Part shown: positions 3,950 to 63,703 of the stretch, in pieces
Layout: every line of letters begins with the position of its first letter
Numbering within the stretch: position 1 is the first letter of the stretch
DNA from: Planctomycetota bacterium
GTDB lineage: Bacteria > Planctomycetota > UBA8108 > SXIK01
Assembly: GCA_965223265.1 (NCBI GenBank)
Contig: OZ244999.1
Location: 4,672,001-4,736,000, forward strand
Reading direction: 5' to 3'
Length of the DNA: 64,000 nt
Notes under the pieces: model-generated
Databases searched by the model: none
Seen by the model: only the letters and a program-made list of their open reading frames with translations
Told to the model about the DNA's origin: nothing
Translations under genes and position numbers: made by a program

Positions 3950-3954
3950 CCGCC

Positions 3955-28441: not shown

Positions 28442-28842
28442 GAAGCGTCTCCTCAGAGGAAGATGGGCGTTTCGGGAATCCCGCGGTCCCATGCAGATCA
28501 ACACATCAGGGCACCACAGGAGCTTCTCAGACTCCCGTGAGTTTTCGCACCTGGCGCCTGGAGCTCCCGGTGCAGGTGCTCAAAACACCGACCCGATCCC
28601 TACATCATACCGGTGCGGTGCGGCGGGATCGAACGCCATGCACGTCGCGGACAACTGTCCACGGCGCTCTCGCAGGAGAAATTCGGTGCCAAGCGTAACC
28701 GATATCCTCGGAAGGCGCCCGCAAAAAGCCTGCGTCGGAAGCGATTCGCACTGACTGCAGGCGACCGGAAAGACAACCGGCCCCGAGGCGACACACGTCA
28801 TCTCGGGGCCGGCCATTGTTGCCAAGGGCTGAACTCAGCGCG

Positions 28843-31249: not shown

Positions 31250-32368
31250 CTATGGCCCCAGGTGCGCCCACCGCGCCTCCATGTGCGTCGCCGTGCCGGC
31301 GTAGAAGAGAACAATGACGTCACCGTCAGGGAGCGCCTCGGCGTAGGGTAGGCCGAAGTTCCAAACGCCCATGTCGCTGAGCAGCTCGCCGGTGGTGCGG
31401 CGATCGGCGCCGGAGGCGCTGCCGTCGAACTCGTACAGCACCACCTCGGAGTCTTCGGTGAAGGCACCGGCGCCGTCCGCCGCGAGGCGTGCACGGATTG
31501 ACCGAGTGCCGAAACGATCCACCCACGCAAGCACGACGCGGCCGTCCGGCAGCACCGCCGGATGCGCCGCCTGGTCGGTGAAGCCTAAGTCTTCGGGAGT
31601 GCTCCACGTCGCTCCTTCGTCACGACTCAACATGCGGTGGATATTGATGTATTTCCCGGCGCTGCGATCGTAAGTCCACGAGTAGGTTGCTATACGGCCG
31701 TCCGGCAAGACGCCGGCTCGCTGGTCCCAATAGAAGATCCGAGCCTCCGGGTCCTGCGCCACTGTGTGTGGCGGCCCCCAAGACCGCCCCAGATCGTCCG
31801 AGTAGAAATAGACCACACGCTGAAACCACGTCGAAGCGTCCTCGTACTCCTTGTTCGTCTCGATGCTCAGTGCGAGCCTCCCGCTCGGCAGTTTGAGGAT
31901 CGGATTCGTGAGACTCGGCGGCCCGACATCAGGAGGCGTCGCGACAACCCGCCACGGTGTCCAGGTGGCGCCACCGTCACGCGAGTCGGCGAGGAGAATC
32001 TTCATCGGCAGGCAGCCCTCGGTCTCCGCATTGAAGAGCGGCTTTCCCGGATAGGCTTCGCGGTCAATCCACATCGCAGCGACGATGAGATGATCGTCGG
32101 CGAGCAGCGTCGCATAGGCGACGGAAAGCGTGCCGCGTCGTCCTTCGACATGGCTTTCAAACGGAGACGTCGGCTCACTCCAACTGTAGCCGCCATCCGA
32201 TGAGCGACGCAGTTCGATGCCCTGGTCGTCGCAGTCTTTCGTCGAGCCAACACGATAGAAAGCCAGGAGCTCGCCACTCGGCAGCACCGTGACGGCGGGA
32301 AACGTTGATACGGCGCGCGGTCCGCCGGGAGACCCGCTGTTGACGACACCGCGATCGATGATGCGCAT
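31250..32368 (-). CDS. BNR/Asp-box beta-propeller (sialidase-like) protein
   Basis: Asp boxes SSDGGYSW, SRDGGATW, SDDLGRSW, SRDEGATW. FGLPY..LPDG motif. Confidence 0.85.
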   Translation of the reverse strand: MRIIDRGVVNSGSPGGPRAVSTFPAVTVLPSGELLAFYRVGSTKDCDDQGIELRRSSDGGYSWSEPTSPFESHVEGRRGTLSVAYATLLADDHLIVAAMWIDREAYPGKPLFNAETEGCLPMKILLADSRDGGATWTPWRVVATPPDVGPPSLTNPILKLPSGRLALSIETNKEYEDASTWFQRVVYFYSDDLGRSWGPPHTVAQDPEARIFYWDQRAGVLPDGRIATYSWTYDRSAGKYINIHRMLSRDEGATWSTPEDLGFTDQAAHPAVLPDGRVVLAWVDRFGTRSIRARLAADGAGAFTEDSEVVLYEFDGSASGADRRTTGELLSDMGVWNFGLPYAEALPDGDVIVLFYAGTATHMEARWAHLGP

Positions 32369-32490
32369 GAAAACTCTCCAGCACTGCGGTTCAATGTCAG
32401 GTTCAAGCTGTCAGGATGGTAGACCCTCGCGCGAGTCAATCTGCCGACATCGGCCGACCCGATCAAGCCGCTGCTTCACCGATCAGCGCA

Positions 32491-33336
32491 TCAAAACGAG
32501 TTCGACAGCTCCCGAAGGTACCCCTGACTCGTCTCGAGCGCACTCCACACGTCGGCCGATGGTGCGATCTCGAAGAGTAGCGGTCCCGCATACCCGATGG
32601 CCCCCAAGGCCTCGAGCTGCTGCCGCCAATCCACGTCCCCGTGCGTGAGGTGAGGCAGGTGCGCTCCGGCGCGCACCTGCTTCAAATGCACCATGGCGAC
32701 GCGCGCAGAGTCGAGGGTCTCCGCAACGCGCCGTGGATCCGCCGGCACCGGCGTGCCCAGGAGGTTGCAAGGGTCAAAGCAGAGCTGGAGAACCTCGGCA
32801 TGACGTCCAAGAGCTCTTCGGGCCGCAACAAGGCAAGGCGCGAACAGACTCCAAGACTGCCGCCCATGTTCAAGCGAAAGAGTGCTGCTCGCGCTCGAGG
32901 CCAACGCCGCCAAACGCGCGATGTCGGCGCCGATCGCCGCGGCGCTGCGACACGCGAGATCGGCGTCAGTCGTCGTCAGGTCGACGAGGCGCAAATGTGG
33001 CCGTCCATGAGGCGCGAGTGCTGCGGCGGCGTCGAGCCCTCGCTTCACCTGATCGAAGAGCTGATCCCCAGGCGACGTTAGGAACGCAGCCGGCACTGCA
33101 GCGTTGAACTCGACAGCCGAAAACCGCTGCGCCAGCCTCGCGAGACCAGCGGCATCGCTGCGGCCGTCGCCGCCTTCGAGAGCGCCAAGGCTGCCCTGGC
33201 GGAGCTCGATGCAGCGGTAGCCACGATCAACCGCCGTGCTCACAAGCGCGTCGAGCGAGGCACCGGAGCGCAGCTGCTGCTGGAAACAGTTCGAGACGAT
33301 GCCGAGTCGTTGCGCCCTGTTCTCCATGGTCTCCAC
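32491..33336 (-). CDS. sugar phosphate isomerase/epimerase (xylose-isomerase-like TIM barrel)
   Basis: GY.CIELR, LSLEH, LCFDPCN, MVHLK, GDVDW...L..IGY.GPLLFE. Confidence 0.75.
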   Translation of the reverse strand: METMENRAQRLGIVSNCFQQQLRSGASLDALVSTAVDRGYRCIELRQGSLGALEGGDGRSDAAGLARLAQRFSAVEFNAAVPAAFLTSPGDQLFDQVKRGLDAAAALAPHGRPHLRLVDLTTTDADLACRSAAAIGADIARLAALASSASSTLSLEHGRQSWSLFAPCLVAARRALGRHAEVLQLCFDPCNLLGTPVPADPRRVAETLDSARVAMVHLKQVRAGAHLPHLTHGDVDWRQQLEALGAIGYAGPLLFEIAPSADVWSALETSQGYLRELSNSF

Positions 33337-48345: not shown

Positions 48346-49122
48346 GTGTCGATGTTCCTAAGGGTCGTCCTCAACGCAGCCCGCATGCAGTTCCTCATGG
48401 CCCGTCGCAATGTCGAGGAGCTGTTTCCGATCCTGACGATTCCGCTGTCGTCCGTGATCGCGCTCGCAATTCTGCAAAACTCGGGGCGCGAAGATCTCGC
48501 TGGCTACGCGCTCGTGGCTGCCTGCCTCATGAGCATCGCGCAGATGGCGTTTTTCATCGGTAGTGAGATTCTCGCCAACGAGCGCGAAGGGCAGACTCTG
48601 GAGCTCGTGGTGGCGAGCCCAACGGACTACTACGTGCCTTTGCTCACGCGCATTTCCGTCCTCACGTCGGCGGGAATCGTTGGATTTCTCGAAGCCTGGG
48701 CGATCGCCCGTTTCGCGTTCGGAATCGATCTCACGATCCATTATCCCGGCATTCTACTAGCGACCTTGGTGCTGACGATCTTCGCTGGATCCGCGACGTC
48801 TCTGATCACCTCCACACTCTTCTGCTTCGGCAGGTCGACGCGGACGTATCAAAACGCCATTTCGGGTCCGCTGTTTCTGCTCAGCGGCGTACTGGTACCC
48901 GTGACTTTCTTGCCGGAGGTCCTGCAGCCCGTCAGTCGATTCATCTTCCTCTACTGGTCGGCCGATCTGCTGCGCGATGCGCTTCAGCCTTCGCCGCCGG
49001 AGAACGCGGCTCTGCGCCTTGGAGCGATCTTCATCCTCGGAACGGTGGGAGGCATCGTCGGCGGGGTGCTTTTTAGACGTTTTCTCCATCACCTGCGCCG
49101 GGAAGGAAGCCTCGGGTTATGA
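48346..49122 (+). CDS. ABC-2 type transporter permease
   Basis: Six TM segments, EREGQTLELVVASP, LSGVLVPVTFLP..LQP.S. Confidence 0.85.
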   Translation: MSMFLRVVLNAARMQFLMARRNVEELFPILTIPLSSVIALAILQNSGREDLAGYALVAACLMSIAQMAFFIGSEILANEREGQTLELVVASPTDYYVPLLTRISVLTSAGIVGFLEAWAIARFAFGIDLTIHYPGILLATLVLTIFAGSATSLITSTLFCFGRSTRTYQNAISGPLFLLSGVLVPVTFLPEVLQPVSRFIFLYWSADLLRDALQPSPPENAALRLGAIFILGTVGGIVGGVLFRRFLHHLRREGSLGL

Positions 49123-49913
49123 GCTGGCTGCGAGTCCTCCGGCACGGTCTTCTCTTGGGTCGAGAAGACTTCCGCGTCTTCTGGAGCAGTTGGCGTGTTT
49201 GGCTCATGACGCATATCCTGCGCGTCACAACAAGCGCCGCGATGTGGGTCCTGCTCGGACGTCTTCTCGATTCGCAGGATCTCGTCCACTATCTTCTCGT
49301 CGGCCAGATCGTGATCGCGGGTCCGCAGCAAGCCGGCTGGGCTGTGGCGGCGTTCACTTGGGATCGAATGTTCATCGGAACGTATCCCATGCTCGTGGCC
49401 GCACCGATGAGCCTGGTGCCTGCTTTCATGGGCCGCACGTCCATTTGGCTGCTCAACGGAATCGCAACGTCGCTGATGATGCTCATCGTGCTCGTGCCCC
49501 TGTTCGGACTGCGACTATCCCCCGCCGCCGTCGTTGGGATCCCGGCGATCATCGCGCTGGTGTGCGCCAGCTCCTACGCACTGGCGTTCTGCATTGGGAC
49601 TCTGATCAACTGGGCGCCGCGACTGCGTAACGTCGCACACAACACTGCGTCGTTGATCATGGCAGCGATCTGTGGAGTGGTGGTACCGGTGACTTTTTGG
49701 CCCGGTTGGGTCGAGAGCGTAGCCAAGGTTTTGCCTGTGACGCACGGCCTCAAATCCATCCGTCTGCTCGTCGCTGGCGCGCCGGTCGCCGAAATCGCCG
49801 TCGGCGCGGCGCTCGAGGCTCTGGTCGGGCTCTGCTGGCTGTCTCTCGGTATCGTCACGCTGGACCGCACTGTTAACGTAGCGAGGCGCACTGGCGCGAT
49901 CGACATCCTGTAG
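49119..49913 (+). CDS. ABC-2 type transporter permease
   Basis: WDR..GT.PMLVAAP, CGVVVPV.FWPGW...AKVLPVTHGL..IR. ATGA overlap. Confidence 0.85.
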   Translation: MSWLRVLRHGLLLGREDFRVFWSSWRVWLMTHILRVTTSAAMWVLLGRLLDSQDLVHYLLVGQIVIAGPQQAGWAVAAFTWDRMFIGTYPMLVAAPMSLVPAFMGRTSIWLLNGIATSLMMLIVLVPLFGLRLSPAAVVGIPAIIALVCASSYALAFCIGTLINWAPRLRNVAHNTASLIMAAICGVVVPVTFWPGWVESVAKVLPVTHGLKSIRLLVAGAPVAEIAVGAALEALVGLCWLSLGIVTLDRTVNVARRTGAIDIL

Positions 49914-49931
49914 CGAATCCCCGGCATCTGC

Positions 49932-50912
49932 ATGAACGCAATCACAACGCGAGACCTCACCAGAGTTTTTAAGAATCGCAATCATCGAGACGGCATCGTC
50001 GCGCTCGACAGCGTAACGCTGGACATCCCGCAAGGGGAGGTACGTGGGCTCCTCGGTCCCAACGGCGCGGGCAAAACGACTCTGGTGAAAATCCTCTCGA
50101 CACTCTTGACTCCAACTACGGGCTTCGCTTCGGTCCTGGGTCGCGATGTCGAGCGCCAGCCGAAGGCGGTCCGACCGCTGATTGGCATCGTGCTCGGCGG
50201 AGAACGCGGGCTCTACTGGAACCTTACCGGGCGGCAAAACCTGGAATATTGGGCGGCTCTCTACAACGTCCCGCTGCGAGAGACACACAGCCGCATCGCC
50301 GCGCTCCTAGACCGCGTTGGCCTTCTCGACCGCGCCGACGATCTCGTCGAAACCTTCTCCCGCGGCATGAAACAGAAGCTGCACCTGGCGAGGGGGCTGA
50401 TCGGCGACGCGCCGGTCCTCTTTCTCGATGAGCCGACCACAGGAATGGACCCGGTCGCGGCGCGCGACTTTAGGAATCTGGTGCGGGAACTGCGGTCGGA
50501 GGGACGGACGATCCTACTGGCGACCCATGACATGGCGGAGGCCGAAAGCATTTGCGACCGAGTGACACTGATCGATCACGGAAAAGTGCTGGCGGAGGAG
50601 ACGCCACAATCTCTCGCCGCGATGATCGCGAAGTTCGAACGCATCGACTTCGAATGGGAGGAGCCGGAACTCATGGACCGCCTCCGCCGCCAACCGGGCG
50701 TCGCTTCCGCGTCCCGCCTCGAAGCGCGCAACACTTTTCGAGTCGAGCTCTCCGAGGAAACGGCGGCGGAGGCGGTTCTCAGAATCTTGGTCGAGGCCGG
50801 AGTCACGTCAATCCGCACGTCGCGCCCAAGCTTGGATGAAGTCTACTTGCATCTAATGGGTGGATTGAAAACTGAGGACGGCGGTCAGGAGCGCCGAGAG
50901 TCCACCCCATAG
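49932..50912 (+). CDS. ABC exporter ATP-binding protein (DrrA-like)
   Basis: Walker A GPNGAGKTT, signature FSRGMKQK, Walker B LFLDEPTTGMDP, H-loop THDM, C-terminal PSLDEVYL. Confidence 0.93.
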   Translation: MNAITTRDLTRVFKNRNHRDGIVALDSVTLDIPQGEVRGLLGPNGAGKTTLVKILSTLLTPTTGFASVLGRDVERQPKAVRPLIGIVLGGERGLYWNLTGRQNLEYWAALYNVPLRETHSRIAALLDRVGLLDRADDLVETFSRGMKQKLHLARGLIGDAPVLFLDEPTTGMDPVAARDFRNLVRELRSEGRTILLATHDMAEAESICDRVTLIDHGKVLAEETPQSLAAMIAKFERIDFEWEEPELMDRLRRQPGVASASRLEARNTFRVELSEETAAEAVLRILVEAGVTSIRTSRPSLDEVYLHLMGGLKTEDGGQERRESTP

Positions 50913-51101
50913 GCCGCCACGAACGCACGTCTCGTCAACCTAACAGCCCGCCGCGGCGTCAGCAATCAGCCGGTGCTCGATCATGTCACAGTTCGCCACG
51001 AATGGAATCCGCTTGAATCGTTCGCTGTGACCAGGGACCATTCCCTCACGACTCGCGATGCCGCGAGTCGCGGCATCCATCGTGGGGTGGGCCCTGTCTC
51101 A

Positions 51102-53672
51102 ATGGTACAGCACGCACGATCCATCGTCCTCGTCAGCGTGGCGCTGACACTCGCTGTGATTGCACTCGGATGGCGCCCGCTCCGCGACGCGGCGCGGGAG
51201 TACTGGTATATCCACAAACTCGCGGCCGACGACTCGTCTGAGCGCCACCGAGCCATCGATAAGTTACGCCGGCTGGACTCCGTACGCGCCGTGCCACGGT
51301 GGATCGAAATGGCGGCAACGAACCTTCGTGCTCCGCGAGACGGGGACGATGAACTGGGCTGGGCGGCGTGGGAAGCCATGCGGCAGTTGACACGCACTCG
51401 CCCACGATCTGCTGCAGCAGCGTTCGCGCGCTGCATGCAGGACAAGGACCATACGGTACGTCAAGTGAGTGTCGAGTTTCTCGGCGCCCTCGGCGACACG
51501 CACGCTGCAGTCTTCCCGGTCCTGGAAAACGCTTTGTACGACTTGGATCCAGGCGTTCGCGCGCTCGCTGCGGCAGGAGTGCGAACGCTGCCAGAAAGCG
51601 TTCGAGAAGCGACGATTGAGCGCCTCTCCGAGCTGCTCCGCGATCCACACAATACCGTGCCTCTCGAGGCCGCGCGAGCCCTCGCGAACGCCGGCGCAAA
51701 GGCACAGTCGGCGACGTTGGCTCTTACCGACGCGCTCACCGACGCGCGCGATCGCGTCCGTGGACACGCGGCCGAAGCGCTCGTCTCGATCTATCTCGCC
51801 GTCAAGAGAGATCGACCGATCGATGAGGTCACGAGCTTTCGTACGCTCCTCGTCGATCGGCTCGTTTCGCTTCTGGGCTCTCTCGTACCGCGAACCCGAC
51901 GCGCTGCGGTTTACACTCTTGGCCGACTGGGCCCAGACGCGCGCACGGCCCTGCCGCAGGTGTTGGCACGGCTCGACGACGACAGTCCTATCGTGCGCGG
52001 ACCCGCAGCCCGCACGGTCAGCTCTCTGCTTGAAGGTAGCAGCCAAGTTGATGCGTTCGTTCTCACGGCCCTGAAACGCCTCGCGCTGAGTATCGACGCG
52101 GATCGCGAGGTATCTCGGCAAGCCGCCCGTAGCTTCGCGCGACTGATCGCTCGAACCGACAATCCCGATGCGGAGCTGAACGATCTCTTGAACTCCTGGG
52201 GTGAACTCGACGATGACCAAGTTCGCTTCCTTCTTTGCAGCGCGATCGACTCTCTGTTGCGCCTGGCACGCAGCGGCTCAACACGCTCGACAGATCCAGC
52301 GGGAGCGACCAGGCGCACAGTGGAGGCGCTCGCCGCAGCTCTCCACGAACGTGGTGGCGCTCACGCTACCCGCCGACGGCGCCGAGCTCCGTCGGGTCGC
52401 GGCTCGCTCCTGTGGGCTTGCGTTTGGCTTTTAGATGGCCTGGGTGCAGCCTCCACCGATGCTGGTGCAGCCTCCACCGATGCTGCCGTGACCGTTCGGT
52501 CGATCGCGCTGAAACACAGCTCATCGAGCATCCGCATCATCGCAGCCTGGCTTCTCGGCAAATCGGCAGGCACTCCAGAATCGGCCGCCGCTCTCACGTC
52601 ACTGCGAGAGGTGCTGCGAAGCGATCGCAGCTCACACGTACGGGCACGTGCTGCTGAGGCACTCGCGCGGCTCGCCCCGTCGGCAGTCGACGATGAGATG
52701 CTCGCGCCCTTGAGAAGAACAACTTTTCACGCCTCAATTTCGAACGCCGACCCCGGGCGACGCGAAGGCAGCGCCGAAAACTACCCGATCGACGCGGTGA
52801 AGCTACCTCCCGGATTCGCGGCGACGATTTTCTATAGCGGGATCCCAAGCCCGGACGGAGTCGCAGTGCGCGATGACAATACACTCTTCGTCGTCAACGA
52901 GAGTGACCCGACGGGAGTCTTCGTCGCCAGGCGAGGCGATTCGTTCGATCCAGCCGACGCGTTCTCGGCGATCGGCCCTCCGTTCGTCAGTCCCGACGAC
53001 ATTTTCCTTGCAGCCGACGGCACGATTTTCGTCTCCGATATCCAAGCACGCGTCGTCTTCACGCTCCCACGCTGGGGTGGGCAGCCGCTGCATTTTGCCG
53101 CGGTCGGCGCGGCATTTGCGCCGCACGGTATGGTCGAAGCGCCGTTAACGTTCCGCGGTTCGCGGGTTCGTCCTGGCGATCTCATCGTTGCAGATAACGG
53201 CTATGGTCAACCAGAAAGGTGGGCAGTGTGGGCGCTCGGCAGTTCATCGCCACGCGCGATCGCGCAAGGCCGGGTGTTTGTCGACCACGGCCCGTCGCAG
53301 GTCGCGTTCACGCCCACGCGCGAACTCATGGTGTATCAAAATCGCGATGCAGCCACAACGCGCATCGTAAAACTCGCGAGCGACGGCACGGTGACGCCGC
53401 TTGTCGTCGGCATTCGGGACCGCGGTGGCATGGACGTTCACCCCGTCACCGGCGACGTCTATTTTGGTCTACAAGAAAAGGAACGCGAAATCTGGTGGGC
53501 GCCGCCTGCGGGCGGTACAGGCACGGTTTTCGCCATCGGTTTCGACGACCGCATCCAAGATCTCCACTTTCGACGCGACGGCCGCGCGCTTTACGTCAGT
53601 GTGAGAAACCGGATCCTGGAAATCACCGGACCATTCGAACGTCACACGCCGCAGCCACGCCCGCGGCGGTAG
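51102..53672 (+). CDS. membrane-anchored HEAT-repeat protein fused to a beta-propeller (NHL/SMP-30-like)
   Basis: N-terminal TM helix and repeated L..L.D....VR..AA.AL HEAT units. C-terminal SPDGVAV..D.TLFV, PDDI....DGTIFVSD and DL.F..DG..LYVS blades. 21-bp in-frame duplication at 52443-52484. Confidence 0.75.
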   Translation: MVQHARSIVLVSVALTLAVIALGWRPLRDAAREYWYIHKLAADDSSERHRAIDKLRRLDSVRAVPRWIEMAATNLRAPRDGDDELGWAAWEAMRQLTRTRPRSAAAAFARCMQDKDHTVRQVSVEFLGALGDTHAAVFPVLENALYDLDPGVRALAAAGVRTLPESVREATIERLSELLRDPHNTVPLEAARALANAGAKAQSATLALTDALTDARDRVRGHAAEALVSIYLAVKRDRPIDEVTSFRTLLVDRLVSLLGSLVPRTRRAAVYTLGRLGPDARTALPQVLARLDDDSPIVRGPAARTVSSLLEGSSQVDAFVLTALKRLALSIDADREVSRQAARSFARLIARTDNPDAELNDLLNSWGELDDDQVRFLLCSAIDSLLRLARSGSTRSTDPAGATRRTVEALAAALHERGGAHATRRRRRAPSGRGSLLWACVWLLDGLGAASTDAGAASTDAAVTVRSIALKHSSSSIRIIAAWLLGKSAGTPESAAALTSLREVLRSDRSSHVRARAAEALARLAPSAVDDEMLAPLRRTTFHASISNADPGRREGSAENYPIDAVKLPPGFAATIFYSGIPSPDGVAVRDDNTLFVVNESDPTGVFVARRGDSFDPADAFSAIGPPFVSPDDIFLAADGTIFVSDIQARVVFTLPRWGGQPLHFAAVGAAFAPHGMVEAPLTFRGSRVRPGDLIVADNGYGQPERWAVWALGSSSPRAIAQGRVFVDHGPSQVAFTPTRELMVYQNRDAATTRIVKLASDGTVTPLVVGIRDRGGMDVHPVTGDVYFGLQEKEREIWWAPPAGGTGTVFAIGFDDRIQDLHFRRDGRALYVSVRNRILEITGPFERHTPQPRPRR

Positions 53673-53836
53673 ACTCCGCCCCCGCGCACTCGCCGAAGTG
53701 GACGCCTTTTGATCGTTCCCACCGTTGCGAATGGACCCGAACCGTCATAGAATGTCCTCCAGATCACTGTAGGGCGTCTCGCGGCCGAAAACGCCGTCGA
53801 GAATCGAGAGCGCGAAAAGCGTGGCGACCCTCGGCA

Positions 53837-53879: not shown

Positions 53880-53916
53880 TTGGAGTCGCGGACGCGCAGT
53901 TTGGGAGATCGAAGCC

Positions 53917-54888
53917 ATGAGACGGATTCGCTTCGGAGCGGGTTTCTTGGCCGCTGGCGTTGTTGGATGGGGTCTTTGGGTGTTGAGCCTCGGCGCGCTT
54001 GGGACGTCGGCGGCCAACGCCGACCAGAGAAAGGACGTGCCCGCACCGGCGTCGATTCTGGCGCAGGCCTACAAGAATTTGGTCAAGTCAGGGTCGTACG
54101 AAACAACCATCGCAATCACCGGCGGGGTGACGAAGCGCGACGACCATAAGGTGACGCACCCGACGGTACGACAGAATTACGAAGCGGCGGTGGTCACCTC
54201 GCCACGTCGACCGATCATGAAGGTCACACGGCCGCGGGCGTACCGCACACCCTCCGGCGGCGCGATCGAATCGGCCGGGATCTGGCGCAACATTCATTCC
54301 GACCGGCAGGGGAAGCGCATGGATCGACTGTTCGCGTTTCCTGAAACCGTGCTCGCTCGAGCACTGAAGCACAAGAGGGCTGCTGAGTGGGTCGAACGTT
54401 CTAAGAAAAAGAAGAAGGGCGCGAAGCGATCCAAGGGGAAAAAAGACGAGAAGCTCTCGAGCGATGCGAAGACCAAGAAGAAAGGCAAAACGTCGGTGGC
54501 CAAAGGCCGCGACGCTGAGAAGCCGCCGCTCCCCGGCTACATACGCGTCAATGCGCCGACCAAGGAAGCTCTGCAGCACTTCATTGAGGTCGAGAATTCC
54601 GGCTGCTTCGGTGGCGGCTGAGGTATCTCCAGATTCTTGTCCCGTGTGGACAAGACGATCGCCAACGCCTACTACGAGTTTCTCATCGACGACGAAACTT
54701 TGCTCCCGAAGCGCATCCGCGTCACTGTCCTGACAGGGAGAAAAGGCGGTACGGAAAAAGAAGGCAAGAAGATCGTCGGCGGCGAGCACGTGGTCTTTCA
54801 GTTCTCGTACGCGCTGAAGAAGTTCGGCAAGGTTGAAAGGCCAGAGATCCCGGCACCTGCAAAAAAGCTCCTGGCGAAAGCGAAGTAG
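53917..54888 (+). CDS. candidate secreted selenoprotein (323 aa, LolA/LppX-like fold; UGA at 54619-21 read as Sec)
   Basis: Track ORFs 53875-54621 and 54637-54888 are in one frame, separated only by TGA. Context ENSGCFGGG-(UGA)-GISRF, SECIS-like hairpin downstream, signal peptide ending AANA. Confidence 0.7.
54622..54660 (+). promoter_or_regulatory. putative bacterial SECIS element
   Basis: 8-bp stem TCTTGTCC/GGACAAGA (54635-55) with loop CGTGT (G at position 2 followed by U) starting 21 nt after the UGA. Extendable by GAT/ATC. Confidence 0.65.
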
Positions 54889-54933
54889 GTACTCCCTTTA
54901 GCCCGTCGCCGGATCGTCAGCGACGCATCGAAG

Positions 54934-54963
54934 CATGACATGGCAAATCATGACATGGCAAAT
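54934..54963. repeat. perfect 15-bp tandem duplication
   Basis: CATGACATGGCAAAT x2. Confidence 0.7.
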
Positions 54964-55282
54964 CGCTGCGACGCGACGATGATGATGTTGTTGTTGAGCG
55001 CTCGCCGTTCTGGCGACGACGCGCAGACGCCGCGACGCGAAGGGCCCGCGGCTGCAGAAGATCGTCAGCGACGATGGGCGATCTGACATCTGCGCGGCGG
55101 CAGCCTCAGCCATCGCCGCGCCGCGCCCCAGAGGACGACGACCTCGCGCGCCGGCAACGTCCCAGCAGCCGCACACCCTCGACGTCCCTTGAGAGGCTTG
55201 CAGCGATTGCTTCGAGTTTCACGATGCGCGTCGAGTCTGCCGGACGACCTACGAGATCGGGAACCGAAACTCATAGAGTCAG

Positions 55283-55401: not shown

Positions 55402-58350
55402 TTGATGGCGACGACTGGGACTGCACGAGGATCGCTCTGCTACTGCAGCGGCGTTGTAGTCAATACCGCGACAGCTTTTCTTGGGCTCGCGCTCGCTGCA
55501 GCGCCGGCGCTCGCCGCCGAGAGTGACCTGGTCATCTCCGAGCTCATGGCTGCGAATCGCTCGACGCTCCGCGATGCCGACGGCGACAGCCCCGACTGGT
55601 TTGAAATCCACAACCGCGGGGAAAAGTCTGTGCTCACGACCCTGTACGTCACGGACGACCCCGCCGTGCCAGCCAAATGGAAGCTCCCGCCGACACGGCT
55701 CGGCCGCGGGGAGTACCTCGTGGTCTTCGCCTCCGGAAAAGACCGCCGCGACGGCGACGAGTTCCACACGAACTTCCGTCTGCGTCGAAGCGGCGAATAC
55801 CTAGCGCTCGTGGCGGCCGACCGCACGACGGTGATCTCAGAATACAAGACTTTCCCGGCGCTCCCAGATGGCGTCTCCTACGGTCTCGATCGAAAACTAC
55901 GTCTGCGGGCGTTTCAGCGCCCGACGCCAGGAACTCGCAACGAGAACGGCATTGAGGTCGCCGCGACACCGGTTTTGACTCCAACTGGCACGCTATTCGG
56001 CTCCAAGGTCACCGTGCGCCAGATAACCGAAGCCGCGGAAACGACGTTTCGTTACACGACCGGCGGAAACGAGCCGACCCGAGGGTCACGCGTCTTTCCT
56101 GAAAAACTCGTTCTCAACTCGAGCACTCTTCTGCTCGTCAAAGGATTCCGCAAAGGAGCGCTCCCCAGCCAGACGGTGACGCGCGGCTTCATCGGCATCG
56201 ATCGCAGCCTCGCCAAAGTGAATTCGAACGTGCCGCTGATCCTGATCGACACGTTCGGGAAGCCCTTAGCCGGCAAACGGCGACAACGATTTCGGGTGCT
56301 CGAGTATCAGCCCGCGATGATGGCAGTGTTCGAACCAACCACGAAGACGGCGCGCGACGGTGACGATCGAAAGGGCAAGAACAAGGGCAAAGAAGAAAGC
56401 AAAGGCAAAGGCAAAAAACCCAAGAGGTCCACCGCTCGACTTACCCCAGGCTTGGCCGCCGACGCGTTCTCGCAGATCGCCATGAGGGTGCGCGGTGCGA
56501 GCACGGCGATCCGCAGCAAAGTGCCGAAGCGTTCATACCGAGTGGAACTGCGTCGCCCCGACGGGAGCGACCGCAAGTTGTCTCTGCTCGGCATGCCGAA
56601 GGATTCAGACTGGATCCTCTACGGCTCGCATCTTTGGGATCGCTCCCTGGTGCGCATGCCGTTTGCCTACAAGCTCAGCCGTCAGATCGGCCGCTATGCG
56701 GCCCGCACGCGGCACTGCGAAGTCTTTCTCAACCAGGACGGTGGACGCATCTCACGCGATGACTTCGTTGGCTACTACACGCTCATGGAAACGATCAAGC
56801 GCGGCAGAAAACGAGTCGACATCGAGCGCACGACAGAGTCCGACACACGCGGCGCAGGCCTTGCCGGCGGGTATCTGTTCAAGCTCGACCACATTCGCCC
56901 TCACGAGGAGCACTTCTCGGCAGGCGGCATGACGTTCTCCCACGTCTACCCAAAACGCGACAACCTCACGGCGGCACATCGCGAGTGGATTCAAAGTTAC
57001 GTCGACGGCTTCGCCAAGGCTCTGTACGGCCGCGCCTTTCGCGACGCGGGTAGGGGCTACGCCAAGTACATCGATGTCGATTCCTGGATCGATCACCACA
57101 TGTTGAACGTCCTGACCATGAACGTCGATGGCCTGCGCTTGAGTACGTATCTGTTCAAAGAGCGCTTCGGACGTCTCGCGATGGGACCGATTTGGGACCT
57201 TGATCGCACCATCGATTCGACCGACAAGCGGGATGACGATCCGATCGGCTGGAAGGGCGCGAACGACGCCACGGACTACTTCGCCTACGGCTGGTGGAAG
57301 CGTCTTTTCGAAGACCCCGACTTCATGCAGCGCTGGATCGACCGGTGGGCAGAGCTCCGCGAGGAGCAGTTCTCTGTCAAAAACATGCACGACATCCTCG
57401 ACCGTGCGGCGGACAAGCTCACGGTCGTGGCGCGGCGCAACTTCAAAAAGTATCCGACAATCGAGCCTTCGGGGGGCTGGAAGACGGAGATCGAGCGCAT
57501 GAAGGAGTGGCTGGAGGAACGCGTCGGGTGGATCGACCGGCAGTTTCCGGAGCCACCACGGTTCGGTCGCAAAGGCGGACAGATTGAGCCGGGGTTCAAG
57601 CTCGAGATGCGAGCCAAAGGCGGCAGGATTCTCTACACGCGCGACGGGTCTGATCCAAGGCAGCCCGGCGGCGGGCGCGCGAAGAGAGCAAAGGTGCTGC
57701 GTTCAGGAAAGACGATCACACTCCGGAAAAACACCAAAGTGACCGCGCGGACCTTGCAGGCATCGGGCAAGTGGAGTCCGCCACGGAGCGCAACGTTCAT
57801 AGTCTCTCCCTTGCCCGTTGTCATCACAGAGATCATGTTTCACCCCACCGCCAGAAACAGTACGGCGAACGCCGGTCCCGCCGCGAGTGCCGACGAGTTC
57901 GAGTTCGTTGAGCTGTTCAACCGCGGCACTGAGACGGTGAACCTCGCGGGCGTACGGTTTCAAAAAGGCATCGAGTTTAAGTTCCCAAAGGGAAAGAAGT
58001 CGTCACTTGAAGCCGGCGAATACGTCGTCATCGTCGGCAGTCTGGCCGCGTTCAAAAGACGCTACGGAACGCGTGGAGTTCGCATCGCCGGCGAATACCG
58101 CGGTCAGTTGAGCAACGCGGGCGAGACGCTGGAGCTCGTCGGGCCGCTGGACGAGACGATCCAGAAGCTCCGCTACCACGACGACTGGTACGAGGAAGCT
58201 GACGGCAGCGGCCGCGCGCTGACGATCCGCGACCCCCACGGTCCGCTGGAGAGCTGGAAGAAACCGGCAAGCTGGCGCGCCGCGGAGGCTTCGCCCGGGC
58301 GGGCGGCGGTCCCAAGCGAGGAGGAAGCTGCAGACGGGGCAGAGTCATGA
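55402..58350 (+). CDS. secreted CotH-family kinase with lamin-tail domains and chitobiase/Fn3-associated modules
   Basis: LVISELMA.N..L.D.DG..PDW.EIHN (LTD), RVRG.ST...PKRSY.VE, LLGMP.DSDWIL, Y.LME.IK, NVDG...S.Y..K, GPIWDLD, YT.DGSDPR and a second LTD VITEIMFHP. Exact start uncertain. Confidence 0.88.
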   Translation: MMATTGTARGSLCYCSGVVVNTATAFLGLALAAAPALAAESDLVISELMAANRSTLRDADGDSPDWFEIHNRGEKSVLTTLYVTDDPAVPAKWKLPPTRLGRGEYLVVFASGKDRRDGDEFHTNFRLRRSGEYLALVAADRTTVISEYKTFPALPDGVSYGLDRKLRLRAFQRPTPGTRNENGIEVAATPVLTPTGTLFGSKVTVRQITEAAETTFRYTTGGNEPTRGSRVFPEKLVLNSSTLLLVKGFRKGALPSQTVTRGFIGIDRSLAKVNSNVPLILIDTFGKPLAGKRRQRFRVLEYQPAMMAVFEPTTKTARDGDDRKGKNKGKEESKGKGKKPKRSTARLTPGLAADAFSQIAMRVRGASTAIRSKVPKRSYRVELRRPDGSDRKLSLLGMPKDSDWILYGSHLWDRSLVRMPFAYKLSRQIGRYAARTRHCEVFLNQDGGRISRDDFVGYYTLMETIKRGRKRVDIERTTESDTRGAGLAGGYLFKLDHIRPHEEHFSAGGMTFSHVYPKRDNLTAAHREWIQSYVDGFAKALYGRAFRDAGRGYAKYIDVDSWIDHHMLNVLTMNVDGLRLSTYLFKERFGRLAMGPIWDLDRTIDSTDKRDDDPIGWKGANDATDYFAYGWWKRLFEDPDFMQRWIDRWAELREEQFSVKNMHDILDRAADKLTVVARRNFKKYPTIEPSGGWKTEIERMKEWLEERVGWIDRQFPEPPRFGRKGGQIEPGFKLEMRAKGGRILYTRDGSDPRQPGGGRAKRAKVLRSGKTITLRKNTKVTARTLQASGKWSPPRSATFIVSPLPVVITEIMFHPTARNSTANAGPAASADEFEFVELFNRGTETVNLAGVRFQKGIEFKFPKGKKSSLEAGEYVVIVGSLAAFKRRYGTRGVRIAGEYRGQLSNAGETLELVGPLDETIQKLRYHDDWYEEADGSGRALTIRDPHGPLESWKKPASWRAAEASPGRAAVPSEEEAADGAES

Positions 58351-59204: not shown

Positions 59205-62200
59205 TCAACGGCACAATGCCGCCGCCGCACATCCAAGCTCCCCGTCCCCCACCGTGAATCCCGCACCGCAGAGTGGAAACGGCGCTGCTGGAGCCGGGCC
59301 GCTGCGGTAGAGGTAGAGGAGCAGTCGTACCGCGTCGGCGACGCTGAGCGTCCCATCACTGTTGGCATCAGCGGCAGCGGCGCATGGCACGGCGTCGCCG
59401 CTCGAAAAGAGATAGCGTAAGAGAAAGATCACGTCGGACGGGCCGCGGAGCGCGCCGTCGCCATCGACGTCGCCGCGCACGAACGGACCGATAGCGTTTA
59501 CGGCAGTGATGTCGAAACGAAACTCGCTGAGGTCACTCCACTTGCCCGAGTCGAAATCCTGGGCGCCATCACCGCTCTCGAAAGCGGCGACTCGCAGCAT
59601 GGACGACGTAGCGATCTCGATCGCTCCACCCGTGAACACACCGCGCGCCTGAGAAAGACGCGGATCGCTGCCATCTGTTGTGTAGACGGCAGTCCACCCC
59701 TGCGGCACCGACAGCGTCACGTCGACCGGGGCCGCGGCAAACACTCCGCCCGGCGGATCCGCCACGGGGAGCACCTCGCGCCCTGGTAAATTCTCACCGG
59801 CAAGCACTTCAACCATGGAAGCGTGCTGCATCGTCATGACGTTTTTCATCTCAGCCGTCGACTCTCGCATCATGCGGAATCTTGAGTTCTCCGCTTCGCG
59901 ATCAACGGCGAGGCGAGCGAACTCGCTGTCCGCCAGCGCTAAGAGCGATTCCAAGTCGTAGACACCGCCCAAGAGCTCTCGCATCTTCAGCAAATAAATC
60001 CGCCGCAGCGTCGCGTTCCGACTGACGCGGAGGCACAGCTTATTGCGCTGCCAATCCGGGTTGTCGCCGACGCCATCGCCGTAAAGCGCGCGCAGCGCTC
60101 CAACGCGCCCGAACGTCAGACCCGAGTCGAAGTCGTAGGCCAGCTGCTTCCACTTACGCGTCTCTGCATCGCCCTCGGGGTCTCGGTAGAGGTAAAAATT
60201 GTGGCCGCCAAAGTCATCGATGTTGAGAAGGATGTAGAGCGACCAGCGCGTAAAAAACTGATCGAGATCGAAGTTGCGATCGAGCCACGGAAGGAGCTCA
60301 GCGTCGTCGACGTCGTTAAGGACGCGCGTCAGCTCTCGGATGTCATCGGGCGGCTCAAGTGGACGCATCTTCTTGTTCCAAGCGCCCCAAAAATCCAAGT
60401 CTTCAACCAGTTGATTCGTGAAAAGATCAGAGTTCTTCCACTGACTCGACGTCTCGACAGAGCGAGCCTTATAGATCTCGGTGCTTGGTGAAAGACCTCG
60501 GCTCTCTGTCCAGGTGCGATTCGGCGACTCGAACGCAATGTAGACGCCCCAGAACCCTCCATTCATTTGGACTCGCACGAGCTCTGAGCCGAGATTCTCG
60601 ATGCCGGCGCGCTCAAAGACCTGAAAGGCAAAGCGCTGCACGAACGGAATGTTGATCATGGTGTCGAGCGTGCGTTGGCCTTCGAAGAGGCGATCGCGGT
60701 TGAAACGGAACTTCCACTGGTTCTTGGCGTGCGCACGGCTGCGGCGACCGCGGCGGCGCAGGTCGATGTGCGGATAGGCGATGCCGTCAATCGCGACGCT
60801 CGCATCTTGATAATCGAGACGCGGATTCCTCGAGATCGCATCGAGCACGTCTTGTGTCACGAAGAGATGAAACACGCGCAGCTCCGTGTCGATGTCGCTC
60901 TTACCGTGAATCGAGTCATCGTGAAAGTACGCCGCGGTCGGCGACGGGTCGGAATCGTAAGGAAAAACCGTCTCGTTGCCCTCGACGTCGGCGACGCGCA
61001 CGCGGTAGTGAACCAACGTGTGGTTCGGCTGGGGCGGCAAGCGCACGCCAAAGATTCCATCGCCGGCGGCGCTGTCGCCCTGATGGCCATCGTCCACCAT
61101 GTCGACGGTGAAGACTTCCGGTTCGACGCCGAACGAATACTCGAGCGCCGCGGTGTCGAGCGCCGCGGCAGCTGTCACACGCGCCGCAATCGTCACTGCA
61201 TCAGTGGACGACGGCGTCTCGGGCGTGTGGCGGAGATCTTCGACGAGAGGTGGAAGGCCCTGCGCAAGCTGCGAGTTCGCCGCGCTCGGCGTCCCCAAGC
61301 CCGCAGCACCGGCGAGCGGCGGCGCGGGCGGCAGGAAAATCGCCGTTTGTGCCTGGATGCGCAGATCGATCGCGACGAAGTCGGGCGCCCCACCATCCTC
61401 AGGCTCGACGTAGCACTCGATGCTCTCACCTGCAAAGAGAAACGACTCGATCGGGTTGCCGTCGTCCGCCGCGATCGGCGTTGGGCTCGCGGCGCTGACG
61501 CGCGCGTCGCCAGCCACGAGCGTCCCCGACGCCAACACGTGATCGCCTTGCTGCAGACGCCACACCTGATTCGCGTCGCCGCTGGCGCGCGGCAGGTAGG
61601 CTGAGCCGGAAATGGTGACGAGGTTCTCGCCACGCGACGTCCAGCGGACGATCGACGGGCCACGCGTTGCGATCGTACCCGCAGGCAGATCGAGAAGCGG
61701 CGCCGCGCCGCTGCCGCGTAGCCAGCCGACCGCGCCGTCTTCCTCACCGCTGGTCCACGCTGCTTGCGCTGGCCCCAGGTCAGCCGGCGACCAATTCTCC
61801 GTCGGCTCCAGGATCCTCCCGTCGCCGGCAAGCAGAGACCAAGGCCCACGCGGATTGAACTCATCGCTCCAGTTGGATGCAAGACGCATGTCGCGAGGAT
61901 CGATGCCAGCCACGAGCTCGGTGCGTAGCGTGCCGGCCGCGAACCGCAGGGTCAGCCGTGGATCCCCTACAAGATGTTTGACCCAACCTGAAAGGACGTA
62001 CGGCTCACCGAGCTCCAAGTCGTCGACGCTCGGAAACTGCAGAACGTTCGCCGCATTGCCGCGTCGCGTCGCGACAAGGTGCTCGCTGCCGACACCAACC
62101 TTGGCGTCCTCGGTCGTCTGAAAACTGCCGGAGTGGCTGCCGCGTTTCGACCATCCCTCGTCGTCGGTTTCAAAACTGCCGTTCGGGAGAACGTTGTCGC

Positions 62201-63464
62201 CCGTGCCATCTCGACGCAGTTCGAGGCCATCGATCAGCCATTCGGACTCGCCGCCAGCCCAGATGAAGAAACGTCTCGATGTCGGCACCCCGGAAATCGA
62301 AAATCTGAACCAGCCGTCGTCGGCGGTGTTGCCACTTTGCGGTGCGTCGTCAACGTAGACGACCTCAGGCGGAATCGGACGAAACGCAGCGCGACTCGCT
62401 CGCCAGTTGGCCGGCGTGCCGTTGTCGGCGTTCACGTCGAGGCACTCGAGAGAGTCGCCGAACTCATCCGGCGCCATGGGCCATGGGTGGCGATCGTCGT
62501 AGCACAGTGTGTTGACGAGCCTGCCGCTGGAATCCTGCAGCGTGATGCGCTCACCCGCATCGCTCAGCCGACCGGAGAACGGACCGAAGACGCGCTCGAC
62601 AGCGTGGCGCTCCGCCGTGATATCGGGGTGACTGGCGACGGTCGCGAATGCGCCGGGAGCGAGCACGGAGCCGCTCGGGAACTCGTAGCGCACACCGTCA
62701 CTGAGTCGCCAACCCGAGAGATCCACCTCGGCAGCGGAGCGATTGACGAGCTCGAGGTACTCGCCGAACGCGTCGTCACCCTCCTCGACATAGGGCCCAC
62801 CGTTGACGGCATCGAAACGCATGCGCGGCTCGGTCCGTAGAGGCTTGTACATGATCTCGCTGATGACCACGGGACCCGCCACACCCGGCATTGCGGGCGC
62901 GTTCGGAGCACCCGGGCTGTAGGGGTCGCCGAGCCCCCAGCTCGCCGCATCGCTATTGTCGCGAGCGGCGTCGACGAGCTCGAGCGAAACACCACCGCCG
63001 TCGGCTTCCTGCGGCCACGGCGGCGAATCGGTGTATTCGACCTGGTCGATCAGCTCGCCGCTCGCAGCGCGGAGTTCGATCGAGTCACCGCCGTTGGAGA
63101 GCGCGCCGCTGTATTCACCTGCGATCAAGATGTCGCCGTAAAAGTCACCCGCATCGTCCAAATTGCGTACGACGACGGCATAGCCCCCTGCGGCGAGAGT
63201 CGTCCCAAGGGGAAACTCAAAGTCGACAGCGACCGCAAGCGTCCACCCGCTCAGGTCGACGGGAGCTCGGCCGCGGTTGTGAAACTCGATGAACTCGCCG
63301 CCAGAGTTGGTCGGGTCGGCGTTGTAGAGGACTTCAGTGATGACGACGTCGCCTGGAGCCGCGGTGAGCGGCGTGGCGCTCAACCATGCGGCGAGTAGAA
63401 GGACCGGGCAAATGACCGCGACCGGCGACAGAGGTTGAAACTTGAAAACGGCGGACAGCGGCAT
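59205..63464 (-). CDS. secreted lamin-tail x2 / CBM-like / CotH kinase protein with C-terminal dockerin-like domain
   Basis: VVITEVLYN..EFIE..N, VISEIMY.P, NGSFE, RRRGRRSR...KNQWKFRF, NIDD..GHNFYLY, AYDFD, YTTDGSDPR and a PFVRGDVDGDG..C.AAADANSDG tail. Start taken at the ATG at 63464 (uncertain). Confidence 0.85.
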   Translation of the reverse strand: MPLSAVFKFQPLSPVAVICPVLLLAAWLSATPLTAAPGDVVITEVLYNADPTNSGGEFIEFHNRGRAPVDLSGWTLAVAVDFEFPLGTTLAAGGYAVVVRNLDDAGDFYGDILIAGEYSGALSNGGDSIELRAASGELIDQVEYTDSPPWPQEADGGGVSLELVDAARDNSDAASWGLGDPYSPGAPNAPAMPGVAGPVVISEIMYKPLRTEPRMRFDAVNGGPYVEEGDDAFGEYLELVNRSAAEVDLSGWRLSDGVRYEFPSGSVLAPGAFATVASHPDITAERHAVERVFGPFSGRLSDAGERITLQDSSGRLVNTLCYDDRHPWPMAPDEFGDSLECLDVNADNGTPANWRASRAAFRPIPPEVVYVDDAPQSGNTADDGWFRFSISGVPTSRRFFIWAGGESEWLIDGLELRRDGTGDNVLPNGSFETDDEGWSKRGSHSGSFQTTEDAKVGVGSEHLVATRRGNAANVLQFPSVDDLELGEPYVLSGWVKHLVGDPRLTLRFAAGTLRTELVAGIDPRDMRLASNWSDEFNPRGPWSLLAGDGRILEPTENWSPADLGPAQAAWTSGEEDGAVGWLRGSGAAPLLDLPAGTIATRGPSIVRWTSRGENLVTISGSAYLPRASGDANQVWRLQQGDHVLASGTLVAGDARVSAASPTPIAADDGNPIESFLFAGESIECYVEPEDGGAPDFVAIDLRIQAQTAIFLPPAPPLAGAAGLGTPSAANSQLAQGLPPLVEDLRHTPETPSSTDAVTIAARVTAAAALDTAALEYSFGVEPEVFTVDMVDDGHQGDSAAGDGIFGVRLPPQPNHTLVHYRVRVADVEGNETVFPYDSDPSPTAAYFHDDSIHGKSDIDTELRVFHLFVTQDVLDAISRNPRLDYQDASVAIDGIAYPHIDLRRRGRRSRAHAKNQWKFRFNRDRLFEGQRTLDTMINIPFVQRFAFQVFERAGIENLGSELVRVQMNGGFWGVYIAFESPNRTWTESRGLSPSTEIYKARSVETSSQWKNSDLFTNQLVEDLDFWGAWNKKMRPLEPPDDIRELTRVLNDVDDAELLPWLDRNFDLDQFFTRWSLYILLNIDDFGGHNFYLYRDPEGDAETRKWKQLAYDFDSGLTFGRVGALRALYGDGVGDNPDWQRNKLCLRVSRNATLRRIYLLKMRELLGGVYDLESLLALADSEFARLAVDREAENSRFRMMRESTAEMKNVMTMQHASMVEVLAGENLPGREVLPVADPPGGVFAAAPVDVTLSVPQGWTAVYTTDGSDPRLSQARGVFTGGAIEIATSSMLRVAAFESGDGAQDFDSGKWSDLSEFRFDITAVNAIGPFVRGDVDGDGALRGPSDVIFLLRYLFSSGDAVPCAAAADANSDGTLSVADAVRLLLYLYRSGPAPAAPFPLCGAGFTVGDGELGCAAAALCR

Positions 63465-63703
63465 GGGCAGAACGGATTTCCGTTGGGAAAGACAAAGCGT
63501 CACGACGATCGACGCGACTCCCATCATAAGGCGGGTGAGACGGCGACCCAATCGCAATCGAGCCCCGCACGGGGCGGTCGCTCCGGGCGCCTTCAATTCG
63601 CCGCAAAAGTGGGTAAAATCTGAGCCGCAGAAGCCGAGACTCGAGCGGATCCGCAGCCGAGCGCCCCACAGCCGTAACGACACCACCTGAGGACGATGTA
63701 TCC

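Follow-up and report, generated by a model that had tools for sequence, protein, structure and literature searches.

The catalogue of prokaryotic selenoproteins published in 2026 describes 119 families and subfamilies together with their domain models and motifs (PMC13188914, Table 1). In this catalogue the DsbA-like, DsbG-like, thiol:disulfide interchange and TlpA-like selenoproteins are predicted to be extracytoplasmic, pair selenocysteine (Sec, U) with cysteine and carry a selenocysteine insertion sequence (SECIS) hairpin within the coding sequence (CDS). They have thioredoxin folds, UxxC or UGC motifs and models in Pfam or NCBIfam. The CU-motif selenoproteins of anaerobic Firmicutes and others have NCBIfam models too, and their earlier, mis-annotated entries end one residue before Sec, tens of residues short. 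The gene described here lies at positions 53917 to 54888 of the forward strand of a 64,000-nucleotide stretch of the genome of a Planctomycetota bacterium (contig OZ244999.1, positions 4,672,001 to 4,736,000), called the window below. Its predicted product resembles the first group in its presumed exported location, its Sec/Cys pair and its hairpin, but has a C-x4-U motif and a non-thioredoxin fold; it resembles the second in the truncation of its database relatives, but has another fold and is covered by no NCBIfam model. The two 'genes' annotated at this position are most probably a single selenoprotein gene, member of a family routinely cut in two by the databases. We assign this reading, which is built on the comparison of sequences, a probability of about 0.88.

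The open reading frames 53917..54618 and 54622..54888 (+) share one frame, interrupted by nothing but the TGA at 54619-21, in the context GGC TGC TTC GGT GGC GGC TGA GGT (G-C-F-G-G-G-*-G). An earlier examination of the letters alone (the sequence-only reading) had proposed that these apparently separate frames are one, split by a single TGA, and that readthrough gives one protein of 323 residues. The first statement is verified on the sequence and its translation, and the second is backed by the frame, by homology across the TGA and by a single predicted fold. With TGA read as U, the complete selenoprotein CDS (53917..54888, +) comprises 323 codons followed by TAG (54886-88); the putative Sec is codon 235, and homology covers residues 1-323 across it. 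Gene callers split this CDS into 53875/53917..54621 and 54637..54888. The downstream frame has TTG 54637 as its sole start and, as had been noticed before, no clear ribosome-binding site.

Relatives give reason to join the two frames. Four of them came from a word-indexed search of proteins; each terminates in ...SGCxxxG, a single residue short of the window's TGA. When translated through stops in six frames, 51 of 61 related genomes gave matches; of the 75 matches that cover residue 235 without a break, 73 have a TGA in frame and two have no stop, and homology reaches query residues 319-323 on the far side. The TGA lies 80-89 codons before the frame end in all 20 fetched loci, inside an S-[GN]-C-x3-G-U motif. 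In an alignment of coding sequences that includes paralogs and leaves out L024 (unreadable letters X in its translation) and L030 (contig end), U occupies one column in 24/24 sequences, and some 88 further codons beyond it remain homologous. The residues right after the TGA are conserved (G/T-V/I-S/P-x-F/L), and the downstream 88 residues are aligned. Of 301 genomes sampled evenly across the phylum, 26 have a match; the full-length matches from outside the class of the window (11/11) each have one TGA, and the five of them that were read keep SGC-x4/5-U followed by LSR[AVM][DE]K. A search for related loci with the joined protein in a genome-contig collection found nothing. A profile search of 1.84 billion cluster representatives yielded 218 proteins at E <= 1e-3. 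Of 152 database proteins examined, no fewer than 98 stop four residues after the Cys (C-x4-stop), and another 15 are fragments of some 80 residues that start just past the Sec site; the source records name the relatives merely 'hypothetical protein'.

All public gene calls, including these shortened proteins (at least 98) and short pieces (15), treat the TGA as a true stop, and TGA is the commonest stop in the window. On that view the locus would encode an exported protein of 234 residues and either a second protein of about 83 residues from TTG 54637 or a dispensable remnant. Yet the frame is kept with zero spacing in the 73 of 75 site-spanning matches, and the residues between the TGA and the possible restart are conserved, that restart being a TTG without a ribosome-binding site. 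The codon is always TGA and never TAA or TAG, and the predicted fold needs strands from both parts. True termination is therefore exceedingly improbable.

A single TGA in an otherwise intact frame also has the look of a fresh nonsense mutation, which would make the locus a pseudogene, or of an assembly or sequencing error in this genome; one relative, P0010, has at this site an Arg, one base change from TGA. However, the same TGA is found in 51 of the 61 related genomes and recurs in families far removed within the phylum, and a second paralog in the same genome likewise has C-x4-TGA. The sequencing data point the same way: contigs of 4 runs (2 samples, 1 study) contain the TGA and show no differences at the site, although they are not independent confirmation because they are possibly the assembly's own source. 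A mutation or error peculiar to this genome is barely credible. The refuting conditions named by the sequence-only reading were all examined, with outcomes in its favour. Comparison with homologs, which it had proposed as a check, upholds the constancy of TGA in frame and column, but a clean homolog with Cys in place of Sec was not found, and P0010 has Arg.

The sequence-only reading had further described a perfect 8-bp stem with a CGUGU loop beginning 21 nt after the UGA, and this is confirmed on the sequence. The predicted bacterial SECIS hairpin (54635..54655, +) consists of TCTTGTCC (54635-42), the apical loop CGTGT (54643-47) and GGACAAGA (54648-55), the UGA-to-loop spacing of 21 nt corresponding to 54622-54642. 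Its minimum free energy (MFE) is -11.9 kcal/mol. The claim that the hairpin is built from uncommon codons holds: measured on 15,131 codons from the 25 long open reading frames of the window, TTG (10% of Leu) and AGA (4% of Arg) are minor codons, as TCC and CGT account for 15% of Ser and 16% of Arg, but AGA lies just outside the stem. The published model of the bacterial SECIS (PMC13188914) allows 3-9 nt in the loop and 4-16 bp in the upper stem (Fig. 2 legend there). One of the first two nucleotides of the loop is a G, whose usual successor is G or U; the loop lies 16-37 nt from the UGA, and the MFE is <= -7.5 kcal/mol. The window hairpin lies within every range, with 5 nt, 8 bp, C-G-U, 21 nt and -11.9 kcal/mol. 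The exact 12-base hairpin motif occurs once more in the 9.18-Mb genome (C1:9131075); it is associated with no credible frame, about one chance copy is expected for 12 specified bases in 18.4 Mb, and it was rejected as a second site.

It is the comparative data, rather than the fold of the window sequence alone, that take the hairpin beyond chance. Synonymous constraint gives the clearest signal: in the seven codons from U+5 to U+11 the identity at third positions is 0.95, compared with 0.40 +/- 0.15 for 255 other well-occupied codons, and this value is reached by 1 of 264 seven-codon windows, the hairpin window itself. The five inner pairs do not vary among 26 sequences with a TGA, in which the loop has the form N-G-U-N-N, its G (column 26) being invariant and its U (column 27) present in at least 90%. 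The loop codon encodes Arg, Gly or Ser (CGT, GGT or AGT), and conservation of the loop G-U while the encoded residue varies shows selection on nucleotides. On the 8-pair structure, 91% of the cells of 25 distinct sequences are paired. Compensatory changes are seen at two of the eight pairs, both outer (U-A to C-G in 6 sequences, C-G to U-A in 1); changes on both sides affect 7 cells, a number reached by 0/500 shuffles, and the covariation score is 0.074 against 0.036 (1/500 shuffles). The hairpin TGTCC-NGTNN-GGACA is found at the homologous place in none of the seven paralogs without TGA. Comparison indicates that the hairpin is in all likelihood a SECIS, an RNA element under nucleotide-level selection.

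The host appears equipped to use it. The window is part of a single 9.18-Mb contig, and the search for selA, selB, selC and selD suggested by the sequence-only reading gave, all above curated cut-offs, a tRNA-Sec with anticodon TCA (70.3 bits, cut-off 47), SelA (474 bits), the SelB wing domain within a 699-residue frame (68 bits) and SelD (309 bits). The SelD match (G000:C1:3460739-3461653, L012) lies inside a 790-residue open frame, against a model of 311 positions, which suggests a SelD fusion protein or else a long, GC-rich open frame. The selA gene is close to the ortholog in two genomes of one family, 1.4-2.4 kb away on the same contig and strand (G007:C343, selA 1421-2512 and ortholog 3902-4780; G009:C21, ortholog 28462-29373 and selA 31797-32897), a weak contextual hint. 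Since TGA ends 14 of the 25 long open reading frames of the window, where it is the commonest stop, and six orthologs stop at a second TGA, 88-89 codons past the first, TGA is not reassigned.

It may also be supposed that UGA is read through as a standard amino acid (Trp, Cys or Arg) by a near-cognate tRNA, the hairpin being a general stimulator. Some relatives have R, W or K at this position, and no Rfam SECIS model matches in 54400-54900, which would be in keeping with this. The hairpin, however, fits the published constraints, including a loop G-U at the right distance; the Sec machinery is complete and SelA is present in 24 of the 26 family-positive genomes; and a Cys five residues upstream is nearly invariant, as expected of a redox pair. 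Readthrough with a standard residue is very improbable. The comparison strongly favours SelB-type recoding of the UGA through the hairpin within the CDS, which would yield one product of 323 residues with selenium presumably incorporated at 54619-21.

The family is organised as several apparently paralogous lineages, some of which seem to have lost the UGA. The genome of the window contains the second Sec paralog mentioned above (G000:C1:6360856-6362037; L037:1357-2535; L061:7857-9035), with the motif V-S-C-G-G-W-G-U, shared by two database clusters, and a long linker of poly-Lys. The stop of this paralog overlaps the beginning of P0170, an exported protein of 354 residues without a Pfam match, after which come an ECF (extracytoplasmic function) sigma factor and a Ser/Thr kinase. 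P0170 itself was ruled out as a member of the family (hhalign probability 0.4%). One small-genome family has tandem paralog triplets (L038:822-3922 in G055, L040:667-3889 in G045 and L039:117-1922 in G033), in the order Sec form with C-x5-U, form without TGA keeping only the Cys, and Sec form with C-x4-U-C (SGCLSGGUC). These triplets may reflect hetero-oligomers or subfunctionalisation. The Cys corresponding to Cys230 is present in 28 of the 30 rows of the alignment used for structure prediction (A2) and in 23 of 24 Sec forms. In the first copy of L040, a C-x5-U Sec form, Leu replaces it, so the Cys partner is not universal, and one database form ends SGAVSGG, without the partner Cys; these two forms suggest that Sec is the more constant member of the pair.

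The full-length relatives without TGA belong to divergent classes, mostly without the motif. One relative without TGA, P0106 (L042:249-1799, G048:C367; 607 residues), is fused to an N-terminal domain of about 350 residues. Frames of 436-612 residues near distant homologs, considered as further domain fusions, turned out to be open GC-rich non-coding sequence. Two His residues, H77 and H291, are near-invariant across the superfamily. In a tree of 54 rows (a quick maximum-likelihood version, unrooted, with midpoint rooting for drawing) the groups without TGA fall among the Sec branches; 6 changes of Sec label are needed, compared with 18 in shuffles, and branches with strong support force 2 of the 6. 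This topology is compatible with an ancestral Sec with repeated loss in paralogous lineages.

Several observations weigh against recoding by selenocysteine in this family. Taken alone, the window hairpin is within chance (z = -1.17; 27 of 200 shuffles fold at least equally well), and scanning 54400-54900 against Rfam revealed no SECIS family and one chance match to a long non-coding RNA (E = 3.3). Unpaired cells occur at pair 19-35 in 8/25 sequences, at 17-37 in 7/25 and at 22-32 in 2/25, and RNAalifold retains just the 5 invariant pairs, among which there is no covariation. That 24 of the 26 family-positive genomes have SelA tells us next to nothing, given that 221 of the 301 genomes of the phylum sample have it. 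The closest candidate for a Cys replacement, L035/P0007 (SGCMDANTVTEC-TGIS), carries a Cys within an inserted loop, shifted by one column of the alignment. The other relatives without TGA carry W, K, R or E at the site, the Arg of P0010 being exactly at the Sec position; a query with P0010 against metagenome contigs, for the codon of the Arg variant, found nothing. Lastly, no neighbour conserved across lineages was found among the compared loci.

The mycobacterial proteins LprG, LprF and LppX are glycolipid-carrier lipoproteins with a lipobox Cys. The sequence-only reading had seen in the two halves of the window protein a fold of the LolA/LppX/LprAFG type. AlphaFold2 was run on the joined protein with the 30-row alignment A2, from which the window's own locus (L015), L024, L030 and the fused L042 were left out. 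As that reading had supposed, both halves are built into one confident domain (mean predicted local distance difference test score, pLDDT, 84; predicted template-modelling score 0.77). The model has a low-confidence N-terminus, a helix (44-58), an antiparallel sheet (60-125), helices and a strand (156-160) before a linker at residues ~161-206, and after it a strand (207-213), a helix (215-227), the Sec loop (228-236), a helix (237-242) and three strands (244-301). The loop itself has a pLDDT of just ~71, which tempers confidence in its geometry. That strands encoded past the UGA belong to the same domain argues against two separate genes. With a redox-pair spacing of C-x4-U (x5 in one paralog group) and a mainly antiparallel predicted sheet that resembles lipid carriers rather than thioredoxins, the protein stands outside the thioredoxin-fold CxxU/UxxC class.

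The top Foldseek matches in the PDB are LprG (3mha, E = 2.4e-4), LprF (4qa8), a LolA-superfamily protein (3buu) and LolB (9tpm), followed by the lipid-binding sheets of ApoB and lipovitellin. All are weak in absolute terms, with template-modelling scores of 0.32 by query and 0.47 by target, a root-mean-square deviation of 9-13 A and 9-11% identity, a point against the carrier-like reading. LprG, LprF and LppX (3mha, 3mh8, 4qa8) are the best of these matches (E = 2.4e-4 to 7.4e-4, probability ~1.0) and have in common with the window protein an exported location, predicted in our case, and a curved beta-sheet that with helices would form a hydrophobic pocket. They differ in having no sequence-family tie to it (9-11% identity) and no Cys/Sec loop, whereas the window protein has a charged linker of ~45 residues within the domain and an N-terminus without Cys. 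LolA, LolB and the LolA superfamily (3buu, 9tpm, 8cgm, 2w7q) are of the same Foldseek fold class (E = 5e-4 to 1e-2) and share a periplasmic location, predicted for the window protein, but the scores are weak, there is no Pfam LolA match, LolA and LolB proteins contain no redox motif, and no conserved link to genes of the lolCDE type was found near the window gene. A Pfam scan of the whole protein and of either half gave no family of the LolA/LprG clan at E <= 1; in Pfam and NCBIfam together nothing scored better than E = 0.05, where matches are noise, and when PDB sequences were searched with a profile none reached an E value below 0.23. The proposed fold stands as a moderate match at the fold level (Foldseek E = 2.4e-4) but finds no counterpart at the level of sequence families. 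A LolA/LprG-like fold is suggested, moderately and at the superfamily level only.

Insertion of Sec in bacteria competes with release factor 2. It is conceivable, and compatible with the recoding proposed here, that the locus has a dual output, selenium scarcity giving a product of 234 residues with a role of its own and selenium giving the full-length protein; the position of the UGA, after a long disordered linker and one helix, would lend itself to this. The shorter product is, however, unlikely to fold, since the model then loses the three long strands 244-301, and such a double role is improbable.

Other features of the gene are consistent with a single exported product. ATG 53917 is probably the start, rather than the in-frame ATG 53875, because a Shine-Dalgarno-like GGGAG (53903..53907, +), read from the sequence, stands 9 nt before it; ortholog N-termini begin aligning near this Met. 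Residues 1-35 (53917..54021, +) form a probable signal peptide or signal anchor, with MRRIRF, a hydrophobic run and SAANA before DQ; a hydrophobic N-terminal segment is present in 20/20 orthologs, and the AlphaFold2 pLDDT is ~50-55 across residues 1-40. The N-terminus contains no Cys, hence no lipobox Cys, and the protein would be exported. The Lys/Glu/Asp-rich low-complexity linker (residues ~161-206; 54397..54534, +) is predicted to be disordered (pLDDT ~50-57 for 161-200) and corresponds to a gapped region of the alignment, its length differing among orthologs. The TGC codon of Cys230, the proposed resolving partner in the S-G-C-x4-U loop, is at 54604..54606 (+), five residues before the UGA (54619..54621, +) of the putative U235, which occupies the same column in the 24/24 aligned CDSs. 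A promoter-like TTGCGA-17-TAGAAT (53725..53753, +) lies in the 245-nt upstream gap; one such consensus match was found where 0.3 is expected, and this is not functional evidence. Between it and the start codon, GGATGAC occurs three times with 14-nt spacing (53845-51, 53859-65, 53873-79) and may serve as an array of binding sites for a regulator. Beyond the stop codon, at a distance of 47 nt, a 15-nt unit is perfectly duplicated in tandem (ATGACATGGCAAATC x2, 54935-54964).

The gene stands alone, separated by 245 nt from an upstream gene for a HEAT-repeat protein (50973-53672, 899 residues) and by 513 nt from a downstream gene for a giant CotH/lamin-tail protein (55402-58350). The latter (+) and the product of 59205-63686 (-) are giant secreted-type proteins with CotH kinase, lamin-tail, chitobiase C-terminal and CBM_4_9 domains. 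An ABC-2 transporter operon is found at 48346-50912. Because no neighbour is conserved across lineages, the context supports no specific chemistry. In five loci, all of one family, a giant protein with a PQQ (pyrroloquinoline quinone)-type propeller and LamG domains adjoins the gene. A cytochrome c of ~200 residues (PF00034, E = 1.6e-7; L051:7194-7772, L057 and L058) adjoins it in 3 of 17 loci from two families, downstream and co-directional in 2 of those 3, and could be a redox partner. These adjacencies involve too few loci for a mechanism to be built on either, and none was derived from them.

From these elements a mechanism can be proposed. SelB carrying Sec-tRNA(Sec) would bind the hairpin at 54635-54655, with its conserved G-U in the apical loop; Sec would be delivered at UGA 54619-21, and translation would run for 88 more codons to the TAG at 54886. 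The product would have 323 residues and an N-terminal export signal, and its two halves, with the disordered Lys/Glu-rich linker between them, would form one LolA/LprG-like domain of curved beta-sheet and helices. The Gly-rich loop S-G-C-F-G-G-G-U-G would lie between helices 215-227 and 237-242, with Sec235 as the reactive centre and Cys230 resolving it as a selenenylsulfide. We infer that Cys230 and Sec235 form such a redox loop. As purely functional analogies, both eukaryotic and with unrelated folds, the Gly-Cys-Sec-Gly tail of TrxR is a flexible selenenylsulfide loop, and the Sec centre of GPx4 acts on lipid hydroperoxides. It is possible, and we put it forward tentatively, that the substrate of the loop is a hydrophobic ligand bound in a presumed carrier-like cavity, such as an envelope lipid that has been peroxidised or is reactive in some other way.

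The main alternative for the function is that the protein is a selenoprotein in which the Cys/Sec loop serves to bind soft metals or metalloids (Hg, Cu, As or Se), or to carry a chalcogen, rather than for redox catalysis on a lipid-like ligand. Several catalogued bacterial selenoproteins, with CU, UxxU or GxU motifs, are metal-binding (PMC13188914), and a flexible Gly-rich loop, together with the near-invariant H77 and H291, would suit chelation. These His residues are nevertheless not tied to the loop, since they are kept in paralogs that lack both Cys and Sec; no metal-related gene is found among conserved neighbours, and the best fold matches are lipid binders. Metal or chalcogen binding is unlikely.

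How far the family is new was judged against the same catalogue. No CxxxxU motif occurs in the available table and text of PMC13188914, and no Pfam or NCBIfam model of the catalogued families matches the window protein; the families defined there by cd or PTHR models were set apart by their descriptions and are of thioredoxin-like, 2Fe-2S, BtuF and Fe-S oxidoreductase types, unlike the fold predicted here. A full-text search of the literature retrieved no report of such a family, the candidate supplement of PMC4807772 being outside its reach, and the accessible passages of the deep-Sep paper (PMC12013277) and of PMC1794560 make no mention of it. The view of the sequence-only reading that the protein is not among known bacterial selenoprotein families agrees with what is available of the 2026 catalogue and with the empty Pfam and NCBIfam scans. 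With no such motif in the accessible catalogue, no Pfam or NCBIfam match and no report in the literature searched, we rate it as a new selenoprotein family, with a standard recoding mechanism and a fold not previously linked to selenium.

The joining of the two frames corrects a systematic annotation error: in the libraries searched, no fewer than 98 distinct proteins end at the residue that precedes Sec, and at least 15 short orphan 'genes' (some 80 residues each) are in fact C-termini. The lineage-specific SECIS pattern UGA-N13-YCNUGUCC-NGUNN-GGACARG can be used to annotate other genomes of the phylum. Since most of the 119 catalogued families are thioredoxin-like, the family would widen the structural contexts in which bacteria use selenium, and, export being predicted, it points to selenium chemistry in the cell envelope. 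At its fullest, and this we regard as doubtful, the proposal is of the first selenoenzyme on a LolA/LprG-like fold, an exported protein that reduces or modifies a lipid held in its cavity by means of a Cys-x4-Sec loop, with Sec ancestral and repeatedly lost. If so, the repeated loss of Sec would have left non-catalytic paralogs in tandem with Sec forms, and the family would be the equivalent of GPx4 in the bacterial envelope, built on an unrelated scaffold.

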